NCBI GenBank assembly: GCA_049510745.1
Contig: JBEKYR010000002.1
Location: 128,001 to 192,000 of the forward strand
Origin: Verrucomicrobiota bacterium
Lineage (GTDB): Bacteria > Verrucomicrobiota > Verrucomicrobiia > Limisphaerales > Palsa-1400
Direction: 5' to 3'
DNA: 64,000 bases
Shown here: positions 7,868 to 53,530 of the stretch, piece by piece
How positions within the stretch are numbered: the first letter of the stretch is position 1
Layout of the letters: each line of letters opens with the position of its first letter
Program-made: the position numbers and the translations under genes
Notes under the pieces: model-generated
The model's database searches: none
Seen by the model: only the letters and a program-made list of their open reading frames with translations
What the model was told of the DNA's origin: nothing

Positions 7868-10021
7868 CTAGTGCGCCAGGCGCGAGGCCATGGCGTAGAT
7901 GATCAAAATGAGCAGGATCACGCCGACGCCGAAAAAGAGGTAGCCAAAGGAGCGGGCGATGGCTTTCCAGCGTTCCCATTCGTCCTTGATGCGCAATTCC
8001 TCCAGCCGCCCGCCGCCCAGCAGACGCTCATACCAGCGCCGCCGCTCGTGCAGCAGTTCGGTCTTGGAGATGCGGCCGGAAAAGATGACGGTGTCCATGG
8101 GAAATTTCTCCAGCCGAAAATGGGTGTTGAAGAAGTGAATCGTAAAGATGAAACCCGCCGCCAAAAGGGCTTCGTCGGAATGAACGATCAGCGCGACGTT
8201 TATCATCCAGCCCGGCATGAAATGCGAAAAGAACTGCGGAAACCACATGACCAGCCCCGACATGCCAATGGCAAAAACGCCCCAGAACACCGCGAAATAA
8301 TCGAACTTTTCCCAGTAGGTCCACCGGTCGAACTGCGGCTTCGGCCCTTTGCCGAAAAACCATTTCTGGTGCGCCACGAAATCCTTCGCGTCCTGCCACG
8401 TCGGGATCATCGAGTCGGGGCCGAACAGCACCTCATTCAGGCGCGTCCATTTGGAGCGCCAGGTGCCGCCGCGGAAGCGGCCGCGCGTCTGCCAGGCCTT
8501 GAGCAGCAGCTTGGCCAGGTGCAGCCCGAAATAGAGAAAGGTGACGAGCGCCCCGAAATGATGGAGGGTGCGGGCCACTTCGGCCCCGCCCAGCACGCCG
8601 AAGATCGCCTTGGCCCAGTCCGTATAGTAGAATTTGAGCGGCATGCCGGTAATGACCAACAGCAGGAAGCTGGTCACGACCAGGAAATGCAGGAATCGTT
8701 CAAAGGGCGGAAAGCGCGTGTACCAATCGTCGCCCTGCTGCGCTTCCACCTTGGCTTCGCGGAAGGTCTTCGAGTCGTGCAGATAGAGGTAGCCGGAGCG
8801 AAACAGCCACAAGAGGGTGTGCGCGCCAAAAAAGGCAAAAACCCCGATCAGCAGCGCGGTCATGGCGACAAACGTCCAATGCAACTGCGGATAATGCTTG
8901 GCGTCCATCGGATCGGCGTGCGGAACGTACTCGGCGAAACTGGCCGTGGCGCCGGGATGACATTTCTGACACGTTCCCACGATGTTGGCCTTGGAAAGAT
9001 GCGAGGCCGGATTGGACGGCGGCAGCACGTCGTGGTGGCCGTGGCAGTCGTAACAGGCGGCCACGTCGGAGGCGACATTCGGCCGGCCCAAAGCCATCGC
9101 CTTGCCATGATAGGTGTCGCGGTAATGGGCCAGGCGGTCCTGGTGACAGCGTCCGCAACGTTCATCGCTGCGCGCCTTGAAGTGGTTGCCGCCGGGGGAC
9201 TCGATTTGATGCGCCGAGTGGCAGTCGGTGCAGACCGGGCCGGACTGGTCGCCTTTGGCCAGTATCTGGCCGTGAATGCTGGCGTTGTAGGTTTTCTCGA
9301 TGCCCAGATGGCAGGCCCCGCAGGTCGCCGCCACGTTGGCGTGATTGACCGACGAACTGCGGTCCACGCTTCGCTTGATGTCGTGAACCCCGTGGCAGTC
9401 ATTGCAGGACGGCGCCAGGATCAACCCCATTTGCAGCAGCGCCCGCCCGTGAATGCTCTCCGAATACTGCGACGCCACTTGCGGAAATTTCATGCGGTAC
9501 TCGGCGGTGATTCCGCTGTTGCTGTGGCATTTGGCGCAGGTCCGCGGCAGGTTGAGTTTGAAGACGGGCGAGTCGGCGTGTTTGACCGGCTGCATCTCGT
9601 GCGAACCGTGGCAATCGACGCACGAGGCGGCCGCCGACGCGCCCATGGCCTTGCTCATGCCGTGAATGCTGCCGGCGTAGAGCTTGGCCTCCGCCTGGTG
9701 GCAGGAGGCGCATTGCGCCGGGGGCAGCCCGCTGGGATGCACCATCTCTTTGATGCTGTCGTGGCAATCGGTGCAGTTGAGTTTGGCGTGGACTGATTTC
9801 GGAAACGTGTTCGTCGGAAACAGCTCCATCGGCACAATCTGTCCCTGAACCTTGCGCGTCGTCGTCGGGTCCGTGTGGCAGTCCAGACAATCCTGGTTGG
9901 ACAGCGGCGCAGCCGTCAGCGGAGCGGCCAGCGACAGCCAGAAAACGAGGGCGAAACTGTAAAGAGCGGACCTTTTACATTCCGCCGTTATGACAGTCGG
10001 TGCATTGATATGCGGGATCAT
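7868..10021 (-). CDS. CbcL-like inner-membrane cytochrome: 11-heme c domain fused to FdnI/HydC-type cytochrome b
   Basis: 11 CxxCH motifs, then TM domain with His ligands (RFLHFL, LHHFG, VHSDEA, TIHFF) and YWEKFDY; nearest in-frame ATG (10021) overlaps the upstream gene, so the start is uncertain. Confidence 0.85.
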   Translation of the reverse strand: MIPHINAPTVITAECKRSALYSFALVFWLSLAAPLTAAPLSNQDCLDCHTDPTTTRKVQGQIVPMELFPTNTFPKSVHAKLNCTDCHDSIKEMVHPSGLPPAQCASCHQAEAKLYAGSIHGMSKAMGASAAASCVDCHGSHEMQPVKHADSPVFKLNLPRTCAKCHSNSGITAEYRMKFPQVASQYSESIHGRALLQMGLILAPSCNDCHGVHDIKRSVDRSSSVNHANVAATCGACHLGIEKTYNASIHGQILAKGDQSGPVCTDCHSAHQIESPGGNHFKARSDERCGRCHQDRLAHYRDTYHGKAMALGRPNVASDVAACYDCHGHHDVLPPSNPASHLSKANIVGTCQKCHPGATASFAEYVPHADPMDAKHYPQLHWTFVAMTALLIGVFAFFGAHTLLWLFRSGYLYLHDSKTFREAKVEAQQGDDWYTRFPPFERFLHFLVVTSFLLLVITGMPLKFYYTDWAKAIFGVLGGAEVARTLHHFGALVTFLYFGLHLAKLLLKAWQTRGRFRGGTWRSKWTRLNEVLFGPDSMIPTWQDAKDFVAHQKWFFGKGPKPQFDRWTYWEKFDYFAVFWGVFAIGMSGLVMWFPQFFSHFMPGWMINVALIVHSDEALLAAGFIFTIHFFNTHFRLEKFPMDTVIFSGRISKTELLHERRRWYERLLGGGRLEELRIKDEWERWKAIARSFGYLFFGVGVILLILIIYAMASRLAH

Positions 10022-11459
10022 ATTCGTCCAACGGATGGGCAAACTTCAGGCCTTGCGGGCTGAGTTGGTTGATCTGCTCGCCGCTGCCTTGGGCCAAAAT
10101 CAAATGGCAGGCGTTGCAGTCGTTGGCTTTTATCGTCCTCTTCCCAACGGTCGAGACATGTTTGCCGTCATGGCATCGGAAACAGCCCGGCCAATCCTTG
10201 TGGCCGATATTGTCCGGGTAGGCCCGCCAATCGGCCTTCATCTCGGGGAAGAAATTATCCCTGTAAATCTGCTGCACGGTGTCGATGGCCGGCCGGATGC
10301 GCGGGTCCTGCGGGTAGTTGTCGGCCAGCGTGGTGGCGATGGTTTGCAGGGCGCTGGTCTCATCCTTGTAAGCGCGGCACAAGACTCCCACCGCGTTGGT
10401 CTTGATGTAGGGCAGGGCGGTGGAGATTTGACCCAGGGACATGGCCAGATTGACGGCGCTTTCCGGCGCCTGGAGCTTGTGGGCCGGGCGATTATGGCAA
10501 TCCATGCAGTCCATCGTTCGCTTGGCAAGCTGGCTGGCGTCATTGGTAAACCCCGCCGCGCGGAACTCCGTCACCACCCCCTGCGGGTCGGTCATGCGCA
10601 CCCACGGGATTTTTTGGCGCGCCTCGTCGGTGGCGATGTATTCAATCTTGTTGGCCACGTTCATGTGCCAATGGATGCCGCCGACCGGCCCGTGCGTGGG
10701 ATCGCCGCCGCCCACTTTGAGCAACAAACGAATGGCGTAAAGCGTGTTGGTCTGGTCCGGCAGATAGTAGGAGAGGGTGCGGTCAAGGTTGCCGACAAAT
10801 TTCTTCGGCCAATGGCATTGCTCGCACGTTTCCTGGGCCGGCCGCAGATTCTTGACAGGCGTGGGAATGGGCGTGGGATATTTGTGGGCCAGGGTCGCAT
10901 ACACCTGGTAGGTGCCGGACAATTTGGAGCGCACATACCACTCGGCGCCCTTGCCGATGTGGCATTCGGCGCAGGCGACCCGCGCGTGCGGGGAATGCCG
11001 GTAGCTTGTCAACTCCGGTTTCATCACCGTGTGGCACGCTTCTCCGCAAAACTCGACCGATTCCGTAAAGTGATACGTGTGGTAACTCCCCATCGCGGTC
11101 AGCAGAAGGAACCCGGCGGTGGCCGGGATGAAAAAGGCCAGCAGGCGCCGGTCATGCGCGCGCGCGAAATCAATGTTGATGTACAAAGACGGGGCGGCGC
11201 CGTTGGCTTTGGCCAACCGGCGGCGCCACCGCCAGGCGCCAAAGAGGAAGATGGCCAATCCCGCCGCCAGAAACGCCGGCGCCACCAGGAAGGTCAGAAT
11301 TCCCACGTACGGGTTCGCCGAATAGACGACCGCATCGAGGAAAAACAGCAGCAGAAACGCAAAAACACTCGAAGCCATCAGCACCAGCCCCGCCAGGGAA
11401 ACCCAGTTGCGAAAGAGCGAGGGCGGGCGAACCGATCCCGTTGGGGCAGGGGTGCTCAT
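9975..11459 (-). CDS. ImcH-like NapC/NirT-family membrane multiheme cytochrome c (7 hemes)
   Basis: Three N-terminal TM helices incl. NPYVGIL; CGEACH (CX3CH) plus 6 CxxCH. Confidence 0.85.
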   Translation of the reverse strand: MSTPAPTGSVRPPSLFRNWVSLAGLVLMASSVFAFLLLFFLDAVVYSANPYVGILTFLVAPAFLAAGLAIFLFGAWRWRRRLAKANGAAPSLYINIDFARAHDRRLLAFFIPATAGFLLLTAMGSYHTYHFTESVEFCGEACHTVMKPELTSYRHSPHARVACAECHIGKGAEWYVRSKLSGTYQVYATLAHKYPTPIPTPVKNLRPAQETCEQCHWPKKFVGNLDRTLSYYLPDQTNTLYAIRLLLKVGGGDPTHGPVGGIHWHMNVANKIEYIATDEARQKIPWVRMTDPQGVVTEFRAAGFTNDASQLAKRTMDCMDCHNRPAHKLQAPESAVNLAMSLGQISTALPYIKTNAVGVLCRAYKDETSALQTIATTLADNYPQDPRIRPAIDTVQQIYRDNFFPEMKADWRAYPDNIGHKDWPGCFRCHDGKHVSTVGKRTIKANDCNACHLILAQGSGEQINQLSPQGLKFAHPLDEYDPAYQCTDCHNGGM

Positions 11460-11530
11460 AAGCGGGCGCTGGAGGGTTGGAGCAACCCTTTCCGCCACTG
11501 CTCCAACGCCTCACGACGCCGTCGGCGTCT

Positions 11531-11857
11531 TTATTTCTTGAAGGTTCGGATATAGGCGACAAGCCCCTTGATCTGGTCGTCGGTCAAGCCTTCCGCGGGC
11601 TTCATGAGGGTTTTGTCGTCTTTTTTGAGTCCTTCCTTGATGGCTTTGACGGCGTCGTCGTCTTTCAACGCGTCCTGGACTTTGGGATCCGTGTAATCCT
11701 TTGCGCCCAGTTTCTGGCCCATTTTGGTCTGGCCCTTGCCGTCTGCACCGTGGCACTTGACGCACTCCTTCTCGTAGAGCGCCTTGCCGTCCTCCGCTTG
11801 CGCGGCCCACGCCGCCAGGACGGAGATGACTGCTGCAACTATGATGCTTTTCTTCAT
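11531..11857 (-). CDS. Periplasmic monoheme class I cytochrome c
   Basis: Signal peptide, CVKCH, distal Met (LMKPA), Lys-rich. Confidence 0.9.
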   Translation of the reverse strand: MKKSIIVAAVISVLAAWAAQAEDGKALYEKECVKCHGADGKGQTKMGQKLGAKDYTDPKVQDALKDDDAVKAIKEGLKKDDKTLMKPAEGLTDDQIKGLVAYIRTFKK

Positions 11858-11942
11858 GTTTCCTTTGGGCGTTCGTGCTTGCACGCCGTCTTCCCGGCGG
11901 CGAACGCCAGTCCGCCGGAAAATCGTTCCCGCCAAACCTCTC

Positions 11943-13202
11943 TCAAATGCGCGCCTCCGGCGGATTGGGATGGCGCACAGCGCCCGGGACCACGTTCTCG
12001 ATCGTCGGCAGGTCCAGGGCCAAAAAATACTTGACCAGCACCGTCAAAATCACGAAGGGCAGCGCCAGCAGCGCCAGGGAGAGAAGCCAGCCTTCCGAGC
12101 CGGCAAACTCCATCTTGTAGCTCATGAAACCGCGCAGGCTCTTGGAAAAAAGCTGGCCGCCAATCACCACGTTCCAGCGCATCGCCAGCACCCCCATCAG
12201 GATCAGCGCCGCGCAGGAGAAATAAACCCGGCGGCGGTTCAACTCCGCCACCTTCCGGCGGACCAGTTGCATCGATCCCAGCAAGAAGAGCGGCACCAGC
12301 GTGCCCAGGCAGGCCTGCCCGATCAGCAGCGTGTAAAACAACTTGCTCGCCGCCAGCGACCGCAGCACATCGATCCCCTCCTCGGCCGAATAAAGGCGGT
12401 GCAGCCAGTCCAGTCCTTCGATGGTGGCGTCGATCACCAGCGCATAAAACAGAAAGCTCGTCATCAAGTCCAGGCACCGCATGTCGGCCGTGATCCGGCG
12501 CGCCCAGCACAAAAACATGTAAACGAACACGCACAGCGCCATGCCCGACACCACCGCTGAGAGAATGAAAATGATCGGCATGAGCACGTTGCCCCACCAG
12601 GGATTGGCCTTGATCGAGCCGAAAATGAATCCGACATACCCGTGCAACAGAAACGCCGACGGAATGCCGACGACGGAAATGATCCGCCCCATGCGGTCGT
12701 CCAAACGCAGGGCCGGCTCGGAAAGGTCCGTCACGCCCAGGGTGAACGCCCGGTAGATGATGCCCCTCAAGCCGCTCTGGGTGTTGGCCCACTCCACAAA
12801 ATCCCGCCGGTAATCGAACCAGAGTTCCAACAGGAGCACGGCCATCAGGTACCAGGCATAGACAAAACCGAACATGGCCATGGGCGAACTGAAGTGCGGC
12901 GTCATCATGATCTCATAGCAACGCTCGGGATGGCCCAGGTGAAAAAGCAGCGGCAGCGTCGCGCACAGCAAAAACGCGAGCGCTGTCAACAATGCCAGCC
13001 GGTAAACCGGCTCCAGCGCCCTGACTTTGAAGACCCGCACCAGCGAGGCCATTATGAAAGCTCCCGCCACCAATCCGGTGATGTAGGGATAGACGACGAT
13101 CAGCACGCTCCACAGCGGATGCAGCGTCCGTTCGTTGGGATAGACGTAGCCCTCGAATTGCGGCAGCGCGTCCACCACGTTGGTCAAAATGGCGGCGTTC
13201 AT
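11943..13202 (-). CDS. NrfD/PsrC-family quinone-interacting membrane subunit
   Basis: WSVLIVVYPYITGLVAG, HLGHPER, SSPMA motifs; many TM helices; TAATG overlap with upstream Fe-S gene. Confidence 0.88.
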   Translation of the reverse strand: MNAAILTNVVDALPQFEGYVYPNERTLHPLWSVLIVVYPYITGLVAGAFIMASLVRVFKVRALEPVYRLALLTALAFLLCATLPLLFHLGHPERCYEIMMTPHFSSPMAMFGFVYAWYLMAVLLLELWFDYRRDFVEWANTQSGLRGIIYRAFTLGVTDLSEPALRLDDRMGRIISVVGIPSAFLLHGYVGFIFGSIKANPWWGNVLMPIIFILSAVVSGMALCVFVYMFLCWARRITADMRCLDLMTSFLFYALVIDATIEGLDWLHRLYSAEEGIDVLRSLAASKLFYTLLIGQACLGTLVPLFLLGSMQLVRRKVAELNRRRVYFSCAALILMGVLAMRWNVVIGGQLFSKSLRGFMSYKMEFAGSEGWLLSLALLALPFVILTVLVKYFLALDLPTIENVVPGAVRHPNPPEARI

Positions 13203-14008
13203 TATCGAACCTCCTCATCCAGGCCCGCGTAGGCCACGCGCGGTCCGGTGCCCAGATTGCGTTTCAGGCCCTCCACCTTGTTGTTGGAGATGAACCGTTG
13301 CAGCGGGTCGTCCGCCACGGGGTTTTTCAAATCGCCGAATATCCGGGCCTGCGAGGGGCAAATCTCCACGCACGCGGGCTTGAGTCCTTTCGTGATCCGG
13401 TGGTAGCACAGGGTACACTTGTCGGCGGTGTGCGTTTCCGGATTCAGAAACCGGCATCCGTACGGGCAGGCCTGCACGCAGAAACCGCACCCGATGCAAT
13501 AATTCTTGTCCACCAGCACCACGCCGTCCGGGGATTGGAAGGTGGCGCCGACCGGGCAGACCTGCGAGCAGGGCGACTTCTCGCAGAGGTTGCAGAGTTT
13601 GGGGACAAAGAACGATTTAAGAATGTCCTCCTTGGGAACGAGCGACACCGGGAAGCCCTCCTTCCCGCCGTCCGGCGAGTCCACGATGGTTTCGCCGCGG
13701 GTCTCGCCCGATCCCGGCTTGGGCTTGGTAATGACGTAGCGCTCGATCCAGGTGCGGAAATGGGAATCCGGGACGCTGTTCTCCTCCCGGCACGCTTCGA
13801 CGCACAGGCCGCATCCGATGCACCGGTCCACGTCCAGCGCCATCAGCCATTTGTGTTGGAACGGATCGTAGCCGGCGGGGGCGTGCGCGGAAACCAAGCC
13901 GTGCCGCACGGCCGCTTTGCAGGTGCGCCCGGCCGACAGGGTCAGAATGCCTCCGACAATTCCAGCCAGATTCTTCAAAACGCTGCGGCGGGTGATATTC
14001 TCGCTCAT
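13202..14008 (-). CDS. NrfC/DmsB-type 4Fe-4S protein with Tat signal
   Basis: TRRSVLK Tat motif; CIGCGLCVEAC, CNLCEKSPCSQVCP, CIGCGFCVQACP, KCTLC..ACVEICP. Confidence 0.9.
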   Translation of the reverse strand: MSENITRRSVLKNLAGIVGGILTLSAGRTCKAAVRHGLVSAHAPAGYDPFQHKWLMALDVDRCIGCGLCVEACREENSVPDSHFRTWIERYVITKPKPGSGETRGETIVDSPDGGKEGFPVSLVPKEDILKSFFVPKLCNLCEKSPCSQVCPVGATFQSPDGVVLVDKNYCIGCGFCVQACPYGCRFLNPETHTADKCTLCYHRITKGLKPACVEICPSQARIFGDLKNPVADDPLQRFISNNKVEGLKRNLGTGPRVAYAGLDEEVR

Positions 14009-14463
14009 GGAACCTCGTTGGGTTGGTGCGGAACATGGCACTCGGTGCAAACACTTCCGTTGTAATGGTTGTGGATGTTGATTTGGTGGAGCCATTTCGG
14101 CCGCGACGGGCTGGCCTGATGGCACCGCACGCACAAACTCATGTTGAGCTTGGGCAGTTTGTCGGCCGGATTCTCCACGTGCGCCCGGCCGGGGCCGTGG
14201 CAGGTTTCGCAGGACAACCCCTTGTGTTCCCCTTTGGCCAGCTTTTGCGCGTGGTCGGTATGGCATTCCACGCACGCCGCCTTTCCGGCCCAAAAGGGTT
14301 GCCGCGACGCGATCTCCTGCAACGCGGCTCCCCTGTAATGGCCGTATTGCCCAAAGGATAGCGGCGTCAGGAAGTAGCGCGCCGTGAAATAGGCGCACAC
14401 GATCCCGATCGTCAGCAGCACGAGCCGGATGATTTGCGGCGGCATTTTGAACAATCGCAACAT
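14005..14463 (-). CDS. Membrane-anchored tetraheme cytochrome c
   Basis: One N-terminal TM helix; CVECH, CETCH, CVRCH, CTECH. Confidence 0.88.
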   Translation of the reverse strand: MLRLFKMPPQIIRLVLLTIGIVCAYFTARYFLTPLSFGQYGHYRGAALQEIASRQPFWAGKAACVECHTDHAQKLAKGEHKGLSCETCHGPGRAHVENPADKLPKLNMSLCVRCHQASPSRPKWLHQINIHNHYNGSVCTECHVPHQPNEVP

Positions 14464-14570
14464 CGTGTCCGTTCTAAACTTCGCCGCGGTTTCCGGCGGC
14501 CTTTGCTCTCTGATTGATTTTCACATCCAAATCATCGCAACGCCAAGCAGATTCGGCTTCGCGGGAATTG

Positions 14571-15062
14571 TCATTTAAACGACATTTTTTGGGGAGTTGA
14601 TCCCTCAACCCCGCGCGAAACAGCCTGCCCTTCAAGCAAATCGGCCATTTCGCAAAGGCCCCGGTAATACTCTTCCCGGGGGATTCCCAGCGCCGCCGCG
14701 CCAAAGGCCTCCGCGTCATCGGACGACGCGAACTCCCCATAGTTGACAACAACCAACTGATAGAGCGCCAGGTGCGCCACCCGGTCCATCTCCGTCATGA
14801 AGAGCGGATGGACGTGAATGACAAATCCGTCTTCCGGCCGGCCGCCGTTTGGCTTCGGATAGGCGCACTCTCCCTTCTGGAGCGGGGCGGGGTCAAATAC
14901 GATCTGGCAGGGGTATCGGACACAGGCGCGGTCTTCGAGGATGCGCAATAGTTCGTTCCAGCCAATGCGCGGCCCGTACTTTTCAAAGATCTCGGCGCCC
15001 CTGGCGGCCGCGTGCCCGCTCAAGGATTGCCTGGCATCATCGGCTGTTAGTCTTTTTGACAT
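14571..15062 (-). CDS. Hypothetical protein within the cytochrome operon
   Basis: 163-aa ORF starting 11 bp after the NrfD stop; protein-like composition. Confidence 0.65.
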   Translation of the reverse strand: MSKRLTADDARQSLSGHAAARGAEIFEKYGPRIGWNELLRILEDRACVRYPCQIVFDPAPLQKGECAYPKPNGGRPEDGFVIHVHPLFMTEMDRVAHLALYQLVVVNYGEFASSDDAEAFGAAALGIPREEYYRGLCEMADLLEGQAVSRGVEGSTPQKMSFK

Positions 15063-15073
15063 GGGCGCGGCGG

Positions 15074-16810
15074 TTAGCCCCGGAGCGGGACGGCGGCGGA
15101 TGCACCGGGTTGCTCCGGCCCGCCTTCGTTCTCCCGGGACAATCGGCCCTGGAGTATCGGCACGGACATCCGCAGAAAAACCGTGTAGCAGAGCAGGCCG
15201 AAGGCCCAGATGCCGAAGCAAACCAGCGTCTCATTGAGGGACGGCCGGTATTCCATCATTTCGCCCAATGGCGTGGGGATGAAGCCGGGGATGACCAACC
15301 CCATTCCCTTTTCGATCCAGATGCCCACGATGCACAGGACGCACGTCAGGTTGAGCCATTTGAGGCTGCGGCTCACGGGCAACACCAGCAAGACCATCGC
15401 CACCAGGTTGAACGCGATCGCCGTCCAAATCCACGGCACCAGCGCGTGATGATGGTGCAGCCCGACGAATAGATATTTCGACGACGCCACATGCAGGTTG
15501 CCTGAATAGAATTCCTTGAAGACTTCGTTCAGCAGCAGGAACACGTTGATCAGCATGGAAACCTGCACGATGCTGCGCAGCGTCATCAGCGCGCGATCGG
15601 TGATCAGCAGCCGCTCGGACATCCGGGACCGGACGATTTTGTTCACCGGGGGCGATTTCATCAGCAGTCGCAAGGCGTCGGCGGTCAGGCTTAGAACCAG
15701 GCTCGGTTCTTCGGCCAGCGCCGTCGCCGTGCGCGGCGTGCCATTGAGGGCCGAGAGTTCTCCAAACTGTTCCCCCGGCCCGGCCGAGCGCGTAATCCGA
15801 AAACGCCCCCCCTCCTGCCTTTTCACCACCACGGCGCCCTGCAAGATAAAGAAGGCCCTGTTCTCGGTTTCTCCCTGGCGCAAAAGCGCGTCGCCGGGCT
15901 CAACCTCCAACACTTCCGCCAGCGGAAGAACTCGCTGGCGGCTTTCCACCGGCACCGACGCCATTTCGGGAAGATGCCGGCAGAGCAGGGCGAAGTCGTC
16001 CAGGGTCGCGGCGCGGCGCCTGGAGGGCGGCAACGGCGCGCCGCCCCCCGCGGGCGCTCCCGGGCCGAGTGAAGCGGATGAGGTCACGCGTCGCACGACC
16101 TGCATGGCGAGGATGATGAGAGCCGGCCCGGCGGTGAACGCCGAGGCCAGGAAACGCGGCCCCACGATCGACGAATTCCAAAACGGCCGCCCGCCCAGAC
16201 CCACATAGAGAAACGCCGTCACGGTGTGGATCGAGACCGCCCAGACGATGGCGATGAAGACGAACGGGATGTAAAACCATTTGCTCGGTTTGCTCTTGCG
16301 ATAGCGGCAGTAAAGCAGATAGCCGCAAATGTGGACGTTGAGCAGCAGGTAGCCGTTGAGCACAATGACGTCCCAACTGAGCATCGATCTGGGAAAGTTG
16401 AACTGCCCGATTCCAGGGATCAAATGCCAGAAACGATCCGGCCGCCCCAGGTCCACCGTCACAAACGCCAGGCACATCAGGATCGCCGCCACCGCCAGGA
16501 GTTCCCCGAAGATGACCAGGTCATGCAGGTCCTCGTTCTTGTAAATATAAACCGGGATGACCATCATGACCGCCGCCGCCGCCACTCCCACCAGGAAGGT
16601 GAAGTTGGCGATATAGACGCCCCACGAGACTTCGTCGCTCATCCCGGTGACGATCAGCCCGTGCGCAAACTGCCGGCAATAGGCGTTGAGGCCCAGCAGG
16701 CAAATCACGCTCAGCAGCCCGATCCACGCGTAGTAGCGCCAGTCGCCCACAAACGCGATGCCCGCGCAACGCCCCAGAAAAACAAGATAATTCCGCGTCG
16801 CGCGCCTCAT
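15074..16810 (-). CDS. NrfD/DsrP-like membrane subunit with inserted cNMP-binding domain
   Basis: SDEVSWGVYIANFTFLVGVAAAAV and DLGRPDRFWH (DsrP-like); internal soluble segment with LLRQGE, FFILQG, GEQFGELSALNGTPRTATA (cNMP-binding signature); TM helices resume afterwards; ATGA overlap at start. Confidence 0.85.
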   Translation of the reverse strand: MRRATRNYLVFLGRCAGIAFVGDWRYYAWIGLLSVICLLGLNAYCRQFAHGLIVTGMSDEVSWGVYIANFTFLVGVAAAAVMMVIPVYIYKNEDLHDLVIFGELLAVAAILMCLAFVTVDLGRPDRFWHLIPGIGQFNFPRSMLSWDVIVLNGYLLLNVHICGYLLYCRYRKSKPSKWFYIPFVFIAIVWAVSIHTVTAFLYVGLGGRPFWNSSIVGPRFLASAFTAGPALIILAMQVVRRVTSSASLGPGAPAGGGAPLPPSRRRAATLDDFALLCRHLPEMASVPVESRQRVLPLAEVLEVEPGDALLRQGETENRAFFILQGAVVVKRQEGGRFRITRSAGPGEQFGELSALNGTPRTATALAEEPSLVLSLTADALRLLMKSPPVNKIVRSRMSERLLITDRALMTLRSIVQVSMLINVFLLLNEVFKEFYSGNLHVASSKYLFVGLHHHHALVPWIWTAIAFNLVAMVLLVLPVSRSLKWLNLTCVLCIVGIWIEKGMGLVIPGFIPTPLGEMMEYRPSLNETLVCFGIWAFGLLCYTVFLRMSVPILQGRLSRENEGGPEQPGASAAVPLRG

Positions 16811-17763
16811 ACGTCGAAGTAGTAGAAGAAGCGCGGGGAGGTGCCCATTTCCTCCTTCAACTGGATGAAGACGCGTTTGTTTCTCAGGATGTAGGAAACC
16901 TCGCTGTTCGGATCGAGGACGTTGCCGAACTTGCGCGCCCCGGCCGGGCAGACCTCCAGGCACGCCGGATAGCGCCCAATGCGCGTGCGCTGGATGCAGA
17001 AGTGGCACTTCTCCATCACTCCCTGCCGCCGCGGCCGGTTGCCCAGATACGCCATCTCGGGGTTGAGCCGTTCCTTTGGAATGGACGGCTGGGTGAAGTT
17101 GAATCGCCGCGCCCAATAGGGGCACGCCGCTTCGCAATAACGGCACCCAATGCACCAGTCATAATCGATCACCGTGATCCCGTCCGCTTCCTGCCATGTC
17201 GCATGAACCGGGCAAACCTTGACGCACGGCGGATTCTTGCATTGCTGGCACTGCACCGGCATGTAGAAAAAACCCTTTTCCGGGACGGATTCCGGCGCAT
17301 AAAAGTGTTCGGCTTTGTCAATGTCCAGCGAACCGTCCGGCAGCCGCAGCACGCGGATGTATTGAATCTCCGGATCGCGCGACTGGTTGTTCTCCGCCAC
17401 GCACGCATGAACGCATTTGCGGCATCCGATGCAACGGGTCAGATTGAGACAGTAAACGAATTCCACCCCGTCCATCGGCTTCAAATCCCGCACGTGCGGA
17501 CGCAACCCATACTGCTTTTCCACTTCGTCCTCGATCCGCGTTAAAACCTTGGCCATGTCCTGGGGCGTCATCTCCTTGTAATACTTCTGCAGGAACCGCT
17601 CCATGCTGGGGAAATCGTTCATTTCCAGCAGCGGCTTCAGGCTGGCCGCCAGCGCCGCCAACCCCGTCGCCACCACGGCGGAAGTGCGCAGGAAACTGCG
17701 CCGCCCCATGCCGTTGGCCGGCGGCCCTGGATTCCTGGCTGGAGACGACGGTGGATTGTTCAT
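16807..17763 (-). CDS. NrfC/DsrO-type 4Fe-4S protein with Tat signal
   Basis: GRRSFL Tat motif; CIGCRKCVHAC, CQQCKNPPCVKVCP, CIGCRYCEAACP, KCHFC..ACLEVCP. Confidence 0.9.
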   Translation of the reverse strand: MNNPPSSPARNPGPPANGMGRRSFLRTSAVVATGLAALAASLKPLLEMNDFPSMERFLQKYYKEMTPQDMAKVLTRIEDEVEKQYGLRPHVRDLKPMDGVEFVYCLNLTRCIGCRKCVHACVAENNQSRDPEIQYIRVLRLPDGSLDIDKAEHFYAPESVPEKGFFYMPVQCQQCKNPPCVKVCPVHATWQEADGITVIDYDWCIGCRYCEAACPYWARRFNFTQPSIPKERLNPEMAYLGNRPRRQGVMEKCHFCIQRTRIGRYPACLEVCPAGARKFGNVLDPNSEVSYILRNKRVFIQLKEEMGTSPRFFYYFDV

Positions 17764-17764
17764 A

Positions 17765-18409
17765 TCATTCGTGGCTGGCCGGCGCGGCGTCGGCGGCGGT
17801 CATCTCCCTCAACGGATGCGGGCCGGGCGCGGGCTTTCGCGAAGGAAACCGGGGCGAATGCGGGTTGTGGCAGTTCACGCAGTCCTTTCGTTCTATCGGG
17901 CCTTGGCTTCGGTCCCAATACCCGCTGATCCTGCCATGCGCTCCAGCCTCCCAGTCCCGATAGGTCGGCCCGTGACAACTGCCGCACAATTGCGTGCTGT
18001 CGGCGAATTTCAGCTCCCGCCCGTCACGCGGCTGGAGCAGCACGAGATTGGTCTCGTTGTGACAGTTAAAGCAGTTGTTGTTGCGCCCGTGCCGTCCGTG
18101 CCCCATCACGACGTCCGCGTGCTCCGTCGGAACAATGATGACCTGATTGGTGTCCAGCCGCAGCACCGGGGGCTTCTTCTTGTCATGACAAGCGTAGCAG
18201 TCAAAATCCGACAGGTCCGCCCCCGCCCGCGCCAGGTCCGCGTAGGACCGCCGGGTGGTTGACAGGTCAAGAAAGTTTGTGTCCACCAGCGCAATCGCCG
18301 GGCGCCTCCACTGCGTTTCGACCGCGCCGGACAGAAAGGCCAGCGCCAGCGCCGCGAAGGCCGCGGACAGAACCGCCAGGCTGATTCCGGTCTTGGCGTT
18401 GGTTGTCAT
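17765..18409 (-). CDS. Membrane-anchored tetraheme cytochrome c
   Basis: N-terminal hydrophobic helix; CYACH, CFNCH, CGSCH, CVNCH. Confidence 0.87.
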   Translation of the reverse strand: MTTNAKTGISLAVLSAAFAALALAFLSGAVETQWRRPAIALVDTNFLDLSTTRRSYADLARAGADLSDFDCYACHDKKKPPVLRLDTNQVIIVPTEHADVVMGHGRHGRNNNCFNCHNETNLVLLQPRDGRELKFADSTQLCGSCHGPTYRDWEAGAHGRISGYWDRSQGPIERKDCVNCHNPHSPRFPSRKPAPGPHPLREMTAADAAPASHE

Positions 18410-18545
18410 CGCGTCATGCGGTTCGGTCGGGCCGGCGGGTTTCGTGGCTCACATCGCCCATCAGGGCCGCGCCTTGGACTCCGGTGACGGCCGCGTGGAC
18501 GGAGATGGCCGGACACGCTCCACCTTCCGTCCGGGCGCGCTTGGG

Positions 18546-18875
18546 CTATTTCTTGAACGCGCGAACCTTGGCCACCAGCGCCTTGATATCGTCGTCCGAC
18601 AGGCCCTCGGCGGCTTTCATCTTGGTCTTGTCCCCGTCTTTGATCCCCTCCTTGATCGCCTTGGTCGCCTGCTCATCGGTGAAAGACGCTTGATAGGTGG
18701 CGTCGGTAAAGTCCTTCACCTCCATTTTCTTGCCGATCTTCGTATCGCCCTTGCCATCGGCGCCGTGGCATTTCTGGCAGGTCTTATCCCAGTTCGCCGC
18801 GGCGTCGTCGGCGGTCAGGGCGGCGGAGCTTGCCGCAAGGGCAAGAATTGTCAGATAGAATTTCGTTCGTTTCAT
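18546..18875 (-). CDS. Periplasmic monoheme cytochrome c (paralog of 11531-11857)
   Basis: Signal peptide; CQKCHGADGKGDTK vs CVKCHGADGKGQTK. Confidence 0.9.
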   Translation of the reverse strand: MKRTKFYLTILALAASSAALTADDAAANWDKTCQKCHGADGKGDTKIGKKMEVKDFTDATYQASFTDEQATKAIKEGIKDGDKTKMKAAEGLSDDDIKALVAKVRAFKK

Positions 18876-19325
18876 AGTTTTCAGCGTATCATTTATTCGG
18901 ATTCTGGCCATGCCGGGCAGCCGCGGCCAAAGCACGGCCCCGGCACAGCTCGTGTTTCTTCGGAAACAACATGGCCGACCCTCCTTGTCTGTGCTGCCCC
19001 GGAATTGTCATTTGCTTCGCTTTTTTTGGCATCTGGCTGCCACAGAACGGATTAGCCGGGGGCAAATCTCCGATGGGAGCAGCCCGCGTCCACAGAACGG
19101 CATGAACCAACCAAAACAAGGGATGCCGCGGCCAATTTTTGGTTAGCCACCACGAGAAGACAAGATGAGCAACTATGGCGCAGGAATTTTTGCCTCTGGC
19201 AAGGCACTCGTGAGCCGCATGGGCGAGGATCGGGGCGTGAGACGGCGCTTGGGTAGTGTACCAATGTAAAATCCGGCGTTCTACTTTCCGCTTGATTCTC
19301 CCGCCAGCGGGGCCAAGGTTTGCCT

Positions 19326-19637
19326 ATGCCTACGCGCCTAAGCAAACAGAAACTGGAAGAAGCAGAGAGCATTAATTCACTGGCCGCCCGCATTGCCGCC
19401 CAAACGACCGGTCAGGAACCGTCCACACCGCAGCCCCCGCCACTCAGGGAGAAAAATGCTGCCGCTGTGGCGCTGGGGCGTTTGGGTGCGAGCAAAGGCG
19501 GAAAGGCGCGGGCTGAGAATCTCTCCGCCTCTCAGCGAAAGAGAATCGCCACAAATGCCGCCAAAATGCGATGGGCTAAAAGAGGCTTTGTTCAAATTTC
19601 CGAATCATCTCCTAAATCATCCTCGGAAGTGGGGTAA
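19326..19637 (+). CDS. Small basic protein of the KNxAAVALGRLGxxKGGKARA type (histone-H1-like, often mobile-element associated)
   Basis: EKNAAAVALGRLGASKGGKARAENLSASQRKRIATNAAKMRW. Confidence 0.7.
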   Translation: MPTRLSKQKLEEAESINSLAARIAAQTTGQEPSTPQPPPLREKNAAAVALGRLGASKGGKARAENLSASQRKRIATNAAKMRWAKRGFVQISESSPKSSSEVG

Positions 19638-20104
19638 TTCTTGGACATGGCGCGTTCTTCCATATCCTCCCTGAAATCCATAAGCACCTGAATTGGTACG
19701 GATTTATTGTAGAATTCATTATAGCTGTCTGAATCTTGTTTAAGTTGCCAACACGCATCGACTATATGGCCTCTCCTTTGCTGGAAGCTGTCAAACATAA
19801 ACGGTGGTGGTGCAATCTCCATATCGTACCACAAAAACAGTTGTATTTTCTCTCCGTTGGCCTTCGTTTCTTTATATCGGACAACGTGTTTTCGTCTCAC
19901 CTTTCGTCCGCTCGCGTCGATAGTGGTCTGGGTGCGCATGGCTTGGGTAATATCACCAGCCAACCTCGAAAGCTCATCCCTTTGAGGCGCTTTCCATCCC
20001 CTTTTAATTAGCCAGTCCGCGATTTCGTATGGGTTGAGCGCCCCATCTTTAACACTCCTTCTAAACTCATCAATCTGGCCCTGTAGCTGTTTGTTGTAAC
20101 TCAT
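19592..20104 (-). CDS. Hypothetical protein downstream of HigA-ImmA gene
   Basis: 170-aa low-GC ORF, starts 19 bp after the upstream stop. Confidence 0.7.
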   Translation of the reverse strand: MSYNKQLQGQIDEFRRSVKDGALNPYEIADWLIKRGWKAPQRDELSRLAGDITQAMRTQTTIDASGRKVRRKHVVRYKETKANGEKIQLFLWYDMEIAPPPFMFDSFQQRRGHIVDACWQLKQDSDSYNEFYNKSVPIQVLMDFREDMEERAMSKNYPTSEDDLGDDSEI

Positions 20105-20123
20105 ATTGTTCCTGTTCAGTAAC

Positions 20124-21251
20124 TTAGACTTGAGGCAATGGCCTTCCCCACCCATCGGTAATTGCTGCTGCGATAACCAAGTCGCGGACTTTAACAAGCA
20201 TTTCACGGTTATGGCTCCATCCAATTTCTTTCAGGTGTTGCAGTTGTCCATTAACAATACCAGGATGCACGCGGACAACTTGTGCAAATTGGTTTATTCT
20301 TTCTTTTGAATAAAATGGTCTGGTTCTTATGATGAAGGATTTTAGCTTTTCTTGTGGGATAAGCATTTCAGCACCTTCCCGATCCGCTCTTTCCTCAATT
20401 TCGTTGAAAGAACCGCAGCGCGATTCTCCAACTAGATCAGAATCGACGGATCGCTTGTCTCCATTTTTTATATGAGACAACTCATGCGATAGCGTATGCC
20501 AAAACCAGTCGATTCTATCGTAACGCAATGAGAGGACTATAACAGGCGCATTCGCTTCGAGCCAGAACGCCGCGCCATCAATCCTAGATCGTGGAAGAGG
20601 CTCTACAACCACAAGGCGAACGCCCAGTTCTGCCAATACCCTCGGCACATGGCGCACTGCCTCAGGAAATTGTGCGAGCGCACGAATTTCAGACAACCCA
20701 GCCTTAAATTTATCACAGTGAAATGGCCTAACATTGAGCACGGACGCAAGTTGACTCGCTTTTGTAACCCATGCCCGCTGCGCGGCAGTAAATTCCTCGA
20801 CACGTTCGGTTTGGCGGGCACTGGCTAAAATTTGTGGCTCTTCGTCAAGCGATTGGATCTTGAAAAATCGGCATAATTCAACTTCCAAGTCCGCTGGATT
20901 ATCGGTGTCCGCAATCCATTGGCGCTTCTGCATGTCTTTGATCGGAGCCACCTCGTAAAGGCGCGTCCGCCTCTGAATTTCACAATCGTCCAGCTCCAAA
21001 AGGGATAGGCGATAAGCATTTTCACGCTCCAGCCAAATTCCTGGTCCGGTGCCAAATGCGATACCGATTGCGACCGCCATTTCCGGTGTTAGAACCCGTT
21101 TTCCCTGCAATAATTCACTAACGATCGGAATATGGCGCCGGATAATCATGGCGAAGTCAGCCTGCGTCCAACCCCTTTGTTGGAGTTCAGCCTTAATGAA
21201 CTCGCCGGGCGATAATGGCTTTTCATCTGTCATCTCGATCAAGATTGCCAT
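20124..21251 (-). CDS. HigA-type XRE HTH fused to ImmA/IrrE zinc-peptidase domain
   Basis: SPGEFIKAELQQRGWTQADFA HTH; RYDRIDWFWHTLSHELSH (HExxH); low GC. Confidence 0.85.
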   Translation of the reverse strand: MAILIEMTDEKPLSPGEFIKAELQQRGWTQADFAMIIRRHIPIVSELLQGKRVLTPEMAVAIGIAFGTGPGIWLERENAYRLSLLELDDCEIQRRTRLYEVAPIKDMQKRQWIADTDNPADLEVELCRFFKIQSLDEEPQILASARQTERVEEFTAAQRAWVTKASQLASVLNVRPFHCDKFKAGLSEIRALAQFPEAVRHVPRVLAELGVRLVVVEPLPRSRIDGAAFWLEANAPVIVLSLRYDRIDWFWHTLSHELSHIKNGDKRSVDSDLVGESRCGSFNEIEERADREGAEMLIPQEKLKSFIIRTRPFYSKERINQFAQVVRVHPGIVNGQLQHLKEIGWSHNREMLVKVRDLVIAAAITDGWGRPLPQV

Positions 21252-21272
21252 AACCCCTCAAATCCGTCAATT

Positions 21273-21295
21273 ACTATCTTACGTAAAACGATAGT
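21273..21295. promoter_or_regulatory. Candidate autoregulatory operator of the HigA-ImmA gene
   Basis: ACTATC-TTACGTAAAAC-GATAGT inverted repeat about 20 bp upstream of the start codon. Confidence 0.4.
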
Positions 21296-21783
21296 TTTTT
21301 ATTTCCGAAAGACGTTGACAATCCTTGCCCGCGCAAGCATAATCAACGAGGCTCACAACGAAGGTCAAACCATAGTTTTCTCCGGATTTAGGTGCAAGTG
21401 ATTGCACTACAATTGATTACGATCGTCGTCGTTTGTCGCCACAGTCACCCACACTTGAGCTTATGAAAGCGGGCAAAAGATACCGTGGTTTTCTCCGATT
21501 GCTGATGAGCGCGTGCGGTTTGATTCACTGCGGCTTGACACGATTTCCGCCACGATTGGCAAAGAGAACGGCGAAGCAGCCGAAGATGCAATTGCCGCAA
21601 CAGAGCACGAAGATCATCCGCCTTCGCCAAGGCTTCGGCGGACAAGCAAAGAAAAAGACATAAGTTCCTCTCTTTGCGTTCCTTGCGGTGAAATATCGCA
21701 AAATCGCTCATTTCTGAGAAAACTCTCTCACCACGAAGGGCAGAAGATCACGAAGTTTTGAAAAGGCCCATCTGGATGGTTTT

Positions 21784-26347: not shown

Positions 26348-27208
26348 TTAGAATCGCAACGAGGGGCTGACACGCGAACCATGCACGGCCTCGTGACAGC
26401 CGGCCGTCCAGCAGGTGCCTTGCTGGACACGCAACGTGTGGTCAGAGCCGCCGATGAGAAGCTGGCCCCCGCTCACCTGCTGGAAGTGGCATTTCAAGCA
26501 CAGGTTGGCGTTGCGCGCCGTCAACAGTTTGGCATTGACCGACCCGTGCGGAGCATGACAGGCGGTGCATCCCTCGCGCATGGCCTCGTGCGTGAACACG
26601 TAAGGCCCGCGCTGGGCGGGATGGCAGCGAAAGCAGCTTTCGTTTTGGGAGAGGAGCGCGGTGCCGCCCCCGATATAAATGGAGCCTTTGTGCGGCGAGT
26701 GGCAGTCGGTGCAGCCCAATTTGTCTTCCGTCACGGGATGATGGGTGGGAAGGCTAAACTGGCCGCGCACATCGGCGTGGCACTGGAAGCAAACCGTTTC
26801 CGTCGCGCGGGGCGGCCGGACAGCGGCGCGCGCGCCAAAGCTGTCTGATTTGGAGCGTCCCGACGTGAAGCTATAGGGAGGCAGCACCTCGCCGCCGGAA
26901 TCCGAGTGGAGGCTGCACGGTCCGTGGCAGGATTCGCATCCGGCGCTGATCGCATTGGTCCCCTCCGCTATCAAACGGGCGTGATCGGCCGTGGCGAATC
27001 CTTTGTAGATTTGTTCGTGGCACTGTTCGCACTCCTTGGAACCGATGTATTTTGCCCCGGGCACGTCCGGCAACACCACCACGGAACGGCTCACGGTGCC
27101 GCAGGAAATCACCAGCAGGAGCAGGACCATCGGGACGGCCGCCAGCGCCAGCGCCCGCGCCCACGCCGGGCCGCGCTTTGCCAGTCTGCGGAAGTTGCAA
27201 TTGCTCAT
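26348..27208 (-). CDS. MtrA/DmsE-like multiheme cytochrome c (7 CxxCH + CX4CH), possible lipoprotein
   Basis: HHPV..GCTDCHSPH, QRGPYVFTH, CTACHAPHGSVNAKLL, CWTAGCHEAVHGS; VISC lipobox-like signal. Confidence 0.85.
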   Translation of the reverse strand: MSNCNFRRLAKRGPAWARALALAAVPMVLLLLVISCGTVSRSVVVLPDVPGAKYIGSKECEQCHEQIYKGFATADHARLIAEGTNAISAGCESCHGPCSLHSDSGGEVLPPYSFTSGRSKSDSFGARAAVRPPRATETVCFQCHADVRGQFSLPTHHPVTEDKLGCTDCHSPHKGSIYIGGGTALLSQNESCFRCHPAQRGPYVFTHEAMREGCTACHAPHGSVNAKLLTARNANLCLKCHFQQVSGGQLLIGGSDHTLRVQQGTCWTAGCHEAVHGSRVSPSLRF

Positions 27209-27283: not shown

Positions 27284-28879
27284 TTACGGGCCAAACTCAT
27301 CGTAAATCCAGTCTTCCGCGGCATCCAGAAGGTCTATGGCATAAAATGCGTTGTGAACGCCAAAGCTGCCGTCGTTCAGCACCAGGTAGAGGTTGAACCG
27401 TGCCTTCCGGATGTTTTCTGGAAGCAGTTGCTGCTCGGCTGCACTCGGCCCCGGCCCGCCCGAGGACAGGCTGCCCGGCGCGGTGTATTCCCAGGCCCGG
27501 TTCCCATACTTGGCGTACAACGACCCCGGGGCCAGGTTGGCCGCCCAATAGTCCAAATCGGATTGCAACTGCTGAATCCGGTTTGTCACCGCGCCCATCA
27601 CGTCTCTGGCGAACGCTTGAGGGTTGTTGGGGTGGCAGGACAGGCAAAAATTGTAACTTTTCACCTTAAAGCTGTGACCCGTCACGGCCGGCAGGGTCTC
27701 GCTCGTAAAGGGTGTAGTCTGCATATGGCATCCGATACACTGGTTGGTGATTAACAGGGCGTGGGGACCGGGTTGGTAATGGGGAAGCCCGGATTCCAAC
27801 TCGCCGACGGTGCCCAGCAGCATGTTGTACTGCGGAGAGTGGTGCGGCTCGCTCACGCTATTGGTCCACGACGCGCCCGCATGATTGTGGCACTGGGCGC
27901 AAATGTTGATCTTGGGATTGTACTCCTTGGCGAAGGCGCCATTGGTGGGCATGAAGTAATCGTTCGTGGAGGCGAGAGGATTGCGCAATTGCGCGGGATT
28001 GGCGTTGGTCTGATGCGGATCGTGGCAGGTGGCGCACACAATCCCGATATCTGCATCACCTTTTGGCAACGCGGTTTTCTCCAGCAGGGCCAAGCGCACC
28101 GACCCGGAATGACACCGGCCACAACGATTGATCCGGCGGGCGGGATTCATATCCTCGACCACTTGCGCATGGGCGCTGTTCGTCCACTCATCGTACGTGG
28201 GATGGCGTGGATCGTTATGACACCCGCCGCAGACGGTGGCGGCCACTTCGGCCCGCGGCCTGACCGACGGATCATCGGGATTGGCCGCATGATTGGCCGC
28301 CGGGCCATGGCAGTTCTCGCATTGAACGCCGGCCAGGTGCGGTGTTTCGGTGTCGCTGACAAATCCGGTTGGCGCATCAAATCCCACTGTGTGGCAAGCC
28401 AGACAAGAACTGTTGGTCTGGCCTCCGTCAGCCTCAAACCTTGCGTTGGCGAACGCGGCTGCGTGAAGGGTGTGGATCGTCGTTTTCAGAATGGGCGCAT
28501 GGCATTCCGCGCAGGTCTGAGACCCGGTGTATCTGGGTGCTGGGCCGGCGACTCGAAAGAAAGCGTTGCTATAACGGGCTGGGACGGTGGCGGTCCGGCG
28601 TAAGTTGTTGTGTCCGGTTAGAGCCTTCCAAACGGGATTATTCGAGCTTTGCGCCTCAAACAATTGGTAATAACCCGATGGACCATCCCATGTGACCGTC
28701 ACGCCGTTCGTGACCAGATTGATTCCCGTAATTATCGGCACTGCGGGCATCCCGCCGGAAACCGGGATGCTTAGATGTTGAACATTCTGCGCGCTGGCGC
28801 AGATGCCAGCCATCAGCGTAACCCAAACCGCAAGAAAGGAGGCCGTCCGGTCAATTAAGAGGAGTCCTGTCCTATTCAT
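27284..28879 (-). CDS. Secreted nine-heme cytochrome c
   Basis: Signal peptide; 9 CxxCH; N-terminal small beta domain ending NAFFRV; DGSFGVHNA near C-terminus. Confidence 0.85.
   Translation of the reverse strand: MNRTGLLLIDRTASFLAVWVTLMAGICASAQNVQHLSIPVSGGMPAVPIITGINLVTNGVTVTWDGPSGYYQLFEAQSSNNPVWKALTGHNNLRRTATVPARYSNAFFRVAGPAPRYTGSQTCAECHAPILKTTIHTLHAAAFANARFEADGGQTNSSCLACHTVGFDAPTGFVSDTETPHLAGVQCENCHGPAANHAANPDDPSVRPRAEVAATVCGGCHNDPRHPTYDEWTNSAHAQVVEDMNPARRINRCGRCHSGSVRLALLEKTALPKGDADIGIVCATCHDPHQTNANPAQLRNPLASTNDYFMPTNGAFAKEYNPKINICAQCHNHAGASWTNSVSEPHHSPQYNMLLGTVGELESGLPHYQPGPHALLITNQCIGCHMQTTPFTSETLPAVTGHSFKVKSYNFCLSCHPNNPQAFARDVMGAVTNRIQQLQSDLDYWAANLAPGSLYAKYGNRAWEYTAPGSLSSGGPGPSAAEQQLLPENIRKARFNLYLVLNDGSFGVHNAFYAIDLLDAAEDWIYDEFGP

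Positions 28880-51116: not shown

Positions 51117-53530
<2,414 letters not shown>

Follow-up and report, generated by a model that had tools for sequence, protein, structure and literature searches.

The 64,000-nucleotide stretch of contig JBEKYR010000002.1 analyzed here (hereafter, the window; assembly GCA_049510745.1, Verrucomicrobiota, Limisphaerales, Palsa-1400) encodes, on the minus strand, a 578-residue NrfD-type membrane protein, denoted P0002, in which the membrane part is interrupted by a cyclic nucleotide-binding (CNB) domain. NrfD-type subunits anchor many anaerobic respiratory enzymes. The gene codes for the quinone-interacting subunit of an electron-transfer module that consists of a tetrahaem cytochrome c, an iron-sulfur (FeS) protein exported by the twin-arginine translocation (Tat) pathway and NrfD, accompanied by a monohaem cytochrome c and a 163-residue protein. 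It belongs to a verrucomicrobial lineage in which the loop between transmembrane helices (TMH) 5 and 6 of the NrfD subunit acquired a complete, canonical CNB domain. Control of the subunit by a cyclic nucleotide bound to this domain is the best-supported reading of the architecture and, judging from sequence comparison and structural modeling, would have about an even chance of being correct.

Architecture and membrane topology of the NrfD-CNB protein

A sequence-only reading of the window had placed a CNB domain inside an NrfD/DsrP-type subunit at 15600-16060, followed by an in-frame return to the NrfD helices. The Pfam match, the alignment with relatives and the predicted fold show that the domain is real and in frame. 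The proposed span was essentially right, the alignment giving 15602-16075; the strings quoted from the domain (LLRQGE, FFILQG, GEQFGELSAL and PRTATA) all occur in the translation; and four further hydrophobic spans follow the insert. The gene and its parts are as follows.

15074..16810, minus strand: NrfD/DsrP-type 10-helix membrane subunit with an internal CNB domain, 578 residues, P0002 (Pfam, NCBIfam, AlphaFold2, Foldseek)
16076..16810, minus strand: N-terminal membrane part, residues 1-245, six spans (TMH A, TMH 1-5) that contain the first four-helix bundle (hydropathy; AlphaFold helices to residue 243; numbering of PMC8076601)
15602..16075, minus strand: insertion, residues 246-403, 158 residues, in which the CNB domain is flanked by a linker rich in Pro and Gly and by a conserved joint (aligned against 28 insert-free relatives; translation checked)
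15617..16021, minus strand: folded CNB domain, residues 264-398, with N-terminal helices, beta barrel and B and C helices (AlphaFold secondary structure, Foldseek, substitution rates)
15719..15775, minus strand: phosphate-binding cassette GEQFGELSALNGTPRTATA, residues 346-364 (translation, conservation)
15602..15625, minus strand: conserved joint RMSERLLI, residues 396-403, between the C-helix of the CNB domain and TMH6 (conservation in 41 sequences)
15077..15601, minus strand: C-terminal membrane part, residues 404-578, ending in a cytoplasmic tail after four spans (TMH 6-8, TMH B) (alignment, hydropathy, AlphaFold)

The Pfam profile of NrfD (PF03916) matches residues 54-243 of P0002 with 128.4 bits (cut-off 25.8), and the cNMP_binding profile (PF00027) matches residues 302-385 with 67.2 bits (cut-off 27.5; E 1.3e-18), covering profile positions 3-87 of 89. 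The best NCBIfam model, that of DsrP (NF045798), reaches 408.5 bits (cut-off 350), with the match broken into two stretches at profile position 214. When the genome was searched in six frames, the two halves of this profile scored 305.1 and 112.9 bits separately, with the second half (profile positions 215-344) located downstream of the first, in the same frame. The bounds of the insertion were delineated by aligning P0002 with nine other insert-bearing and six insert-free proteins, and then with all 69 related loci fetched, of which 41 hold the insert-bearing form and 28 the insert-free form. At the place of the insertion, the insert-free proteins read RRVTxY(H/R)ITDKALLTLR, or a close variant, with exactly 17 residues between the markers in all 28 cases; the insert-bearing proteins have, at the same place, RRVT, then about 158 residues, and then RMSERLMITDRALLTLR. 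Farther downstream, the penultimate span carries the motif IEKGMGL, in which K501 is invariant in the first of these alignments. The corresponding motif of DsrP from D. vulgaris also contains Lys rather than Arg, and K501 is the likely equivalent of the gate Lys of that protein as described in PMC8076601.

Hydropathy identifies ten spans in P0002, six before the insert and four after it, with Lys and Arg residues concentrated in the N-terminal tail (5), the TM4-5 loop (5) and the C-terminal tail (4). According to PMC8076601, the NrfD family members with ten helices (ActC, ActF and the DsrP models) consist of TMH A, TMH 1-8 and TMH B; both termini of ActC and ActF are on the N-side; and the quinone site of the family is on the P-side, within TMH 1-4. 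Because of the six preceding spans, the positive-inside pattern, the location of the termini in the ten-helix relatives and the twin-arginine signal of the FeS partner, the loop that carries the insert is predicted to be cytoplasmic, which is the side on which a cyclic nucleotide sensor had been expected in the sequence-only reading. The insert is thus predicted to sit in the TMH5-TMH6 loop, inside the second four-helix bundle.

Fold, conservation and selection of the CNB domain

AlphaFold2, run on an alignment of 75 sequences, produced a model of P0002 with a mean predicted local distance difference test score (pLDDT) of 87.3 and a predicted template modeling score (pTM) of 0.81. In this model, the insert forms an eight-stranded barrel, with all strands within residues 298-376, together with helices at 270-297 and 377-398, and the block as a whole has pLDDT of about 85-96; confidence is low only in the Pro/Gly linker (246-258), at residues 399-401 (pLDDT below 50) and in the C-terminal tail. 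Foldseek matched the insert to the CNB-B domain of PKA RI-alpha (5kjy and 5kjz; TM-score by target 0.72-0.75), the CNB domain of MloK1 (3clp; 0.79), PKG, 1u12 and chains of SthK and HCN, and the membrane part to ActC of alternative complex III (8k9e_C, 6btm_C, 6lod_C and 6f0k_C; TM-score by target 0.68-0.74). A sequence search of the PDB with the insert yielded PKG (1.3e-16), PKA RI-alpha (3e-14) and the MloK1 CNB domain (2.7e-8), as well as CRP proteins, and the cassette aligns residue for residue with these PDB matches, including the PKG domains.

Conservation was assessed in 41 sequences, namely, P0002 and 40 loci, with one locus (L025) left out as a copy of another (L022). The cassette contains FGE at residues 349-351 and R360-T-A362, that is, an Arg nine residues past the Glu, followed by x-Ala. 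Five of its residues (G350, E351, R360, A362 and A364) are invariant in all 41 sequences, and the Glu and Arg occur at the canonical spacing in 118 of the 119 metagenome clusters among the matches listed. The residue after the cassette Arg is Thr in only 13 of the 41 genome-derived sequences, being replaced elsewhere by Val, Met, Ala, Leu, Glu or Gln. Hence, of the FGE and RTA residues that were originally taken to be retained, the Glu and the Arg stand and the Thr does not, and given the variability of this Thr, nothing favors cGMP over cAMP as the ligand. In the joint, M397 and R400 are present in all 41 sequences, and R396, E399, L401 and I403 in 38-40 of them; conserved yet modeled with low confidence, the joint at M397/R400 might be a hinge. 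Over 14 close pairs, the ratio of nonsynonymous to synonymous substitution rates (dN/dS) was 0.12-0.31 for the CNB domain, 0.13-0.81 for the N-terminal linker and 0.00-0.15 for the membrane core. The CNB domain is under purifying selection.

Distribution and origin of the insert

The stretch is present in many peat-metagenome runs; no RNA run was among those listed. Contigs were compared from four runs free of any flag as a possible source: one spans 15422-16214, crossing both junctions without a difference, and two contigs from another of these runs each bridge one junction; no joints or indels were reported in these independent contigs. The same in-frame architecture is found in 14 of 41 related genomes (a set that includes the source genome), in 40 further loci and in 119 metagenome clusters among the matches listed, and dN/dS is well under 1. 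An artefact is thus excluded, and the chance of a chimeric assembly, or of a remnant in decay, is practically negligible.

The combination of PF03916 and PF00027 proposed from the sequence was recovered by a large protein search in all 119 other metagenome clusters among the matches listed, at 79-91% identity. Among the related genomes, 16 of the 41 yielded a match, of which 14 were contiguous and insert-bearing (69-100% identity), the other two containing only an insert-free orthologue (81-85% core identity). A scan of species-representative genomes detected 57 loci, nearly all from metagenome-assembled genomes (MAGs) titled Verrucomicrobiota (Limisphaerales, Opitutaceae, Pedosphaera, Lacunisphaera and others); the few loci with labels outside this phylum may be binning errors. 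When 401 genomes were sampled evenly across the phylum, a DsrP-like match was obtained in 15, including 4 with the insert. At 50% clustering, a single other full-length cluster with the domain was found, a singleton present on three contigs (P0122).

The NrfD-CNB architecture is thus common in sequence databases and seems unstudied: full-text searches, with subscription journals outside their scope, turned up no paper on the combination of NrfD, DsrP or polysulfide reductase with a CNB domain, and the main text of the 2007 census of CNB domains (PMC2246266) contains neither NrfD nor polysulfide as a term. The proteins are already public under generic names, so what is new here is the recognition and interpretation of the variant, not the sequence.

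In a tree of 69 rows built from the membrane core only, the 37 insert-bearing and 32 insert-free rows interleave, so that at least 10 changes are needed, 6 of them forced by starred branches. A single insert-bearing clade is nevertheless not rejected by the approximately unbiased (AU) test (p 0.097), its log-likelihood being lower by 88.65. Distances in the core and in the CNB domain correlate moderately (r 0.47), and the nearest neighbour is the same for both in 13 of 36 cases. The junction is fixed, with the same Tyr, in all 28 insert-free forms and does not differ from that of outgroup-like sequences, and at the flanking position 239, Val is found in 31 of 36 insert-bearing forms and Ile in all 24 insert-free forms (three outgroup-like and the partial rows left out). 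Tentatively, we read these patterns as the outcome of a single ancient insertion, after which the two forms coexisted, perhaps recombining, rather than of many precise deletions. Within the genome, seven other CNB open reading frames (ORFs) were found, including one protein in the window that combines GNAT and CNB domains; all are only 23-32% identical to the insert, and therefore, no recent donor was found there.

A possible role of the domain in the control of electron flow

The architecture, the predicted side of the membrane, the conservation of the cassette, the purifying selection and a source of ligand all support control of the NrfD subunit by a cyclic nucleotide. As to the ligand, the genome contains two ORFs for class III cyclases, of 681 residues (contig C48) and 793 residues (contig C31). 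The former has an N-terminal CHASE2 sensor domain (117 bits), and accordingly, the synthesis of cyclic nucleotides may answer to an extracytoplasmic signal.

Under this scenario, the loop would face the cytoplasm, where cAMP or cGMP produced by the class III cyclases of the cell would reach the domain and be bound through the conserved Gly-Glu and Arg of the cassette. Binding would reposition the B and C helices, whose sole well-conserved link to the membrane part is the joint RM-ERL-ITD leading into TMH6; the N-terminal linker, in contrast, appears to be floppy and to evolve in a near-neutral manner. The second four-helix bundle (TMH5-8), which packs against the bundle with the quinone site and through which, in the NrfD family, part of the proton path is proposed to run, would be altered as a result, and the second messenger would switch or tune either the electron flow between the quinone pool and periplasmic cytochromes or its coupling to protons. 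The coupling of quinone chemistry to proton movement by NrfD is itself proposed from structures and models, not shown (PMC8076601). The more specific proposal, that direct binding of a cyclic nucleotide to this quinone-interacting, putatively proton-translocating subunit switches the branch on and off post-translationally, we consider quite possible, if somewhat short of probable.

If true, this would be a mode of respiratory control so far undescribed for any NrfD-type complex, and full-text searches, again with subscription journals outside their scope, turned up no paper on a ligand-regulated NrfD-type subunit. It would amount to a direct post-translational link from a second messenger to the branching of electron transport in Verrucomicrobia that are abundant in peat and freshwater. 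The built-in sensor would also offer a natural handle on conformational coupling in the second helix bundle, for which natural controls exist in the form of the insert-free orthologues (81-90% core identity), the relative with a dead cassette and cousins that bear CBS domains.

Several observations weigh against ligand control. In the AlphaFold model, the C-helix is not continuous with TMH6, the two being separated by a break at residues 399-404, and therefore, the picture of a rigid lever is without support. P0122, a full-length but divergent relative (65% identity), still has the domain even though both cassette residues are replaced (Glu to Arg and Arg to Cys), so that at least one lineage uses the domain without canonical ligand binding. 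Furthermore, the domain is missing from orthologues with 81-90% core identity whose gene cluster and neighbours are the same; hence, the complex works without it.

The last two of these observations also speak in favor of the explanation that the CNB fold is a structural or docking module, which would recruit the 163-residue partner or another protein, or stabilize the complex, with no regulatory binding of a nucleotide: P0122 retains the domain despite its degenerate cassette, and the insert-free orthologues keep the same cluster and neighbours. In addition, PKA is known to use the helical portion of its CNB domains for docking, as described in PMC2246266. A pure scaffold, however, would not need the cassette Glu and Arg, which are kept in all 41 sequences and in 118 of the 119 clusters among the matches listed, and the 163-residue partner is equally present next to the insert-free forms (23 of 28 loci) and so is independent of the domain. 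On balance, we view a purely structural role as unlikely; if it is correct, the finding is a domain-architecture curiosity. Less likely still is the binding of a ligand other than cAMP or cGMP, such as another nucleotide, a nucleoside or a metabolite. There are precedents in the NtcA- and FixK-type cassettes of CNB-fold proteins (table of PMC2246266) and in the nucleoside-binding PKA of trypanosomes (as described in PMC10959531), and the variable residue after the cassette Arg leaves room for such a specificity. However, the cassette fits the cyclic-nucleotide type, G-E-x8-R-x-A, and the best matches, in both sequence and fold, are the cAMP- and cGMP-binding domains of PKG, PKA and MloK1.

It is also conceivable that the signal runs in the opposite direction, with the redox or conformational state of NrfD altering the affinity of the domain for a nucleotide or a partner, and thereby reporting the state of the quinone pool to the cytoplasm. 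The conserved, flexibly modeled joint would permit coupling either way, and the conserved cytoplasmic partner could be the output. Given, however, that no output domain is attached, that the partner is present also without the CNB domain and that known CNB domains act as inputs, reverse signaling appears highly improbable.

The electron-transfer module and its relatives

The gene for P0002 is embedded in a cluster with every gene between 18935 and 7871 on the minus strand. The ATG codon of this gene (16810-16808) shares bases with the TGA of the FeS gene upstream (ATGA). The other genes of the module are as follows.

18546..18935, minus strand: monohaem class-I cytochrome c, 129 residues (ORF as listed), first gene of the cluster (Pfam Cytochrome_CBB3 37.4 bits, Cytochrom_C 32.9 bits; one CxxCH)
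17765..18409, minus strand: tetrahaem c-type cytochrome, 214 residues, with an N-terminal hydrophobic signal or anchor (four CxxCH; Pfam Cytochrome_C7, Paired_CXXCH_1)
16807..17763, minus strand: periplasmic FeS subunit of the four-cluster type, 318 residues, DsrO/NrfC/PsrB-like (Fer4_11, Fer4_7; 17 Cys; N-terminal twin-arginine motif RRSFLR)
14571..15062, minus strand: 163-residue cytoplasmic protein without a known family, encoded by the next gene after that for NrfD (gene order, two natural fusions, AlphaFold)

The conservation of the neighbours was counted in 41 insert-bearing and 28 insert-free loci, and this five-gene core proved to be conserved around both forms of the NrfD gene alike. 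The FeS gene is kept in 38 of the insert-bearing and 27 of the insert-free loci, and the tetrahaem cytochrome gene is located upstream of it in 36 and 26, respectively; a homologue of the monohaem cytochrome c adjoins the NrfD gene in 35 and 17 loci; and the NrfD gene is followed directly by a homologue of the gene for the 163-residue protein in 35 and 23. A scan of 11500-19500 for promoters and terminators gave counts at the level of shuffled sequence.

The 163-residue protein, for which no Pfam match was found, is probably a partner of the NrfD subunit. In two loci, it forms the C-terminal end of an in-frame fusion with the NrfD-CNB protein, the linkers being different (L023, 737 residues; L037, 733 residues), which speaks for its location at the cytoplasmic face of NrfD. 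Its AlphaFold model (pLDDT 92.2) resembles small zincin-like proteins (ImmA/IrrE, minigluzincin; Z 6.4-8.5), with hints of the same from the Atlas; the HExxH motif was not seen in its sequence or in the consensus.

P0002 is a DsrP by sequence likeness only. The likeness to DsrP of the DsrMKJOP complex extends to the best NCBIfam model, the ten spans and the order of genes, with the NrfD gene following genes for a DsrO-like FeS protein and a small multihaem cytochrome. In contrast to DsrMKJOP, no DsrM or DsrK is encoded adjacent to it, the four-haem cytochrome has no DsrJ-specific match in NCBIfam, the FeS subunit scores 169.7 bits against the NCBIfam DsrO model, below the cut-off of 200, and the CNB insertion is added. 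P0002 is not a functional DsrP. The genome (5.6 Mb, 94% complete) gave no match to dsrA (TIGR02064), and DsrK likewise went undetected, with a best match of 22.4 bits against a cut-off of 400. A more apt description of the module, initially interpreted as quinol-oxidizing, is that of a tetrahaem-c/FeS/NrfD quinone:cytochrome c oxidoreductase, working in one direction or the other, akin to the DsrJOP sub-module.

We also take the module to be akin to Cbc4 of Geobacter, which consists of a tetrahaem cytochrome c, an FeS protein and an NrfD-like membrane protein. The likeness is one of subunit make-up, and the neighbourhood in the window is similarly rich in multihaem cytochromes. Cbc4 (CbcSTU) is predicted to be a quinol:cytochrome c oxidoreductase that passes electrons from the menaquinone pool to the periplasm, its role being unknown, and its description in PMC13591261 reports no cyclic-nucleotide domain.

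Among solved structures, the nearest by both sequence (6f0k_C, E 8e-9) and fold is ActC of alternative complex III (6f0k, 6btm, 6lod and 8k9e), which has the same 10-helix layout with the termini on the N-side (PMC8076601). ActC differs from P0002 in sequence, with about 14% identity, and has no more than a short TMH5-TMH6 loop where the insertion lies in P0002; of the further subunits of that complex (ActA, B, D, E and F), none is seen beside P0002.

With the MloK1, SthK, HCN and CNG channels, P0002 shares a canonical CNB domain with the cassette Glu and Arg beside a membrane helix. In the channels, the domain is C-terminal, following a C-linker, within a tetramer that opens a pore, whereas the membrane part of P0002 is an NrfD, not a channel, and its CNB domain is internal, between spans 6 and 7 of a cofactor-free, quinone-interacting subunit. 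A parallel is provided by DsrP-like proteins of the same NrfD subfamily, from other phyla, with a CBS pair (P0127 and relatives; about 566 residues; 53% core identity to P0002), in which a cytoplasmic nucleotide-sensing module is likewise fused to NrfD; here, the sensor has another fold and is C-terminal rather than in a loop. About 85 clusters carry both PF03916 and PF00571, with source names that include a Geoalkalibacter 'DsrP' and MAGs of Thermodesulfovibrionales. A nucleotide-sensing module was thus added to the cytoplasmic side of this NrfD subfamily at least twice. In view of such relatives, the premise of the sequence-only reading that NrfD subunits are normally purely membrane proteins was too strong: besides the C-terminal CBS pair, C-terminal multihaem cytochromes and N-terminal FeS domains occur in DsrP-like NrfD proteins. 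Individual variants include an NrfD with a C-terminal multihaem cytochrome c (P0133, 616 residues), an NrfD with about 450 residues of no family (P0135, 859 residues) and an FeS-NrfD fusion (P0199, 573 residues).

Other features of the window

Directly after the first tetrahaem-c/FeS/NrfD set, at 14463-11943 on the minus strand, lies a second one, in which the NrfD protein has 419 residues and lacks the insert; such a second set is co-located in 13 of the 41 insert-bearing and 3 of the 28 insert-free loci. At 7868-11498, also on the minus strand, a 724-residue protein combines 11 CxxCH haem motifs with a membrane domain of the cytochrome b561 type, and it is adjoined by a 507-residue NapC/NirT-like multihaem cytochrome. 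Further multihaem cytochromes are encoded at 26348-27208 (7 motifs) and 27284-28879 (9 motifs), and this multihaem-rich region looks like an electron-export island.

On the other side of the cluster, at 19500-21500, the G+C content drops from about 0.60 to 0.44-0.52. The two ORFs in this segment (19592-20224 and 20124-21251, minus strand) have no Pfam match, and no homologue of either was found beside the cluster in any related locus; the segment may be foreign DNA inserted beside the respiratory cluster.

The GNAT-CNB protein mentioned above, a further putative cyclic-nucleotide effector in the window, is encoded at 51117-52736 on the plus strand. It comprises 539 residues, with weak GNAT matches (Acetyltransf_1 at the cut-off) and a C-terminal cNMP-binding domain (63.8 bits), an arrangement that recalls the cAMP-regulated protein acetyltransferases of the Pat type.

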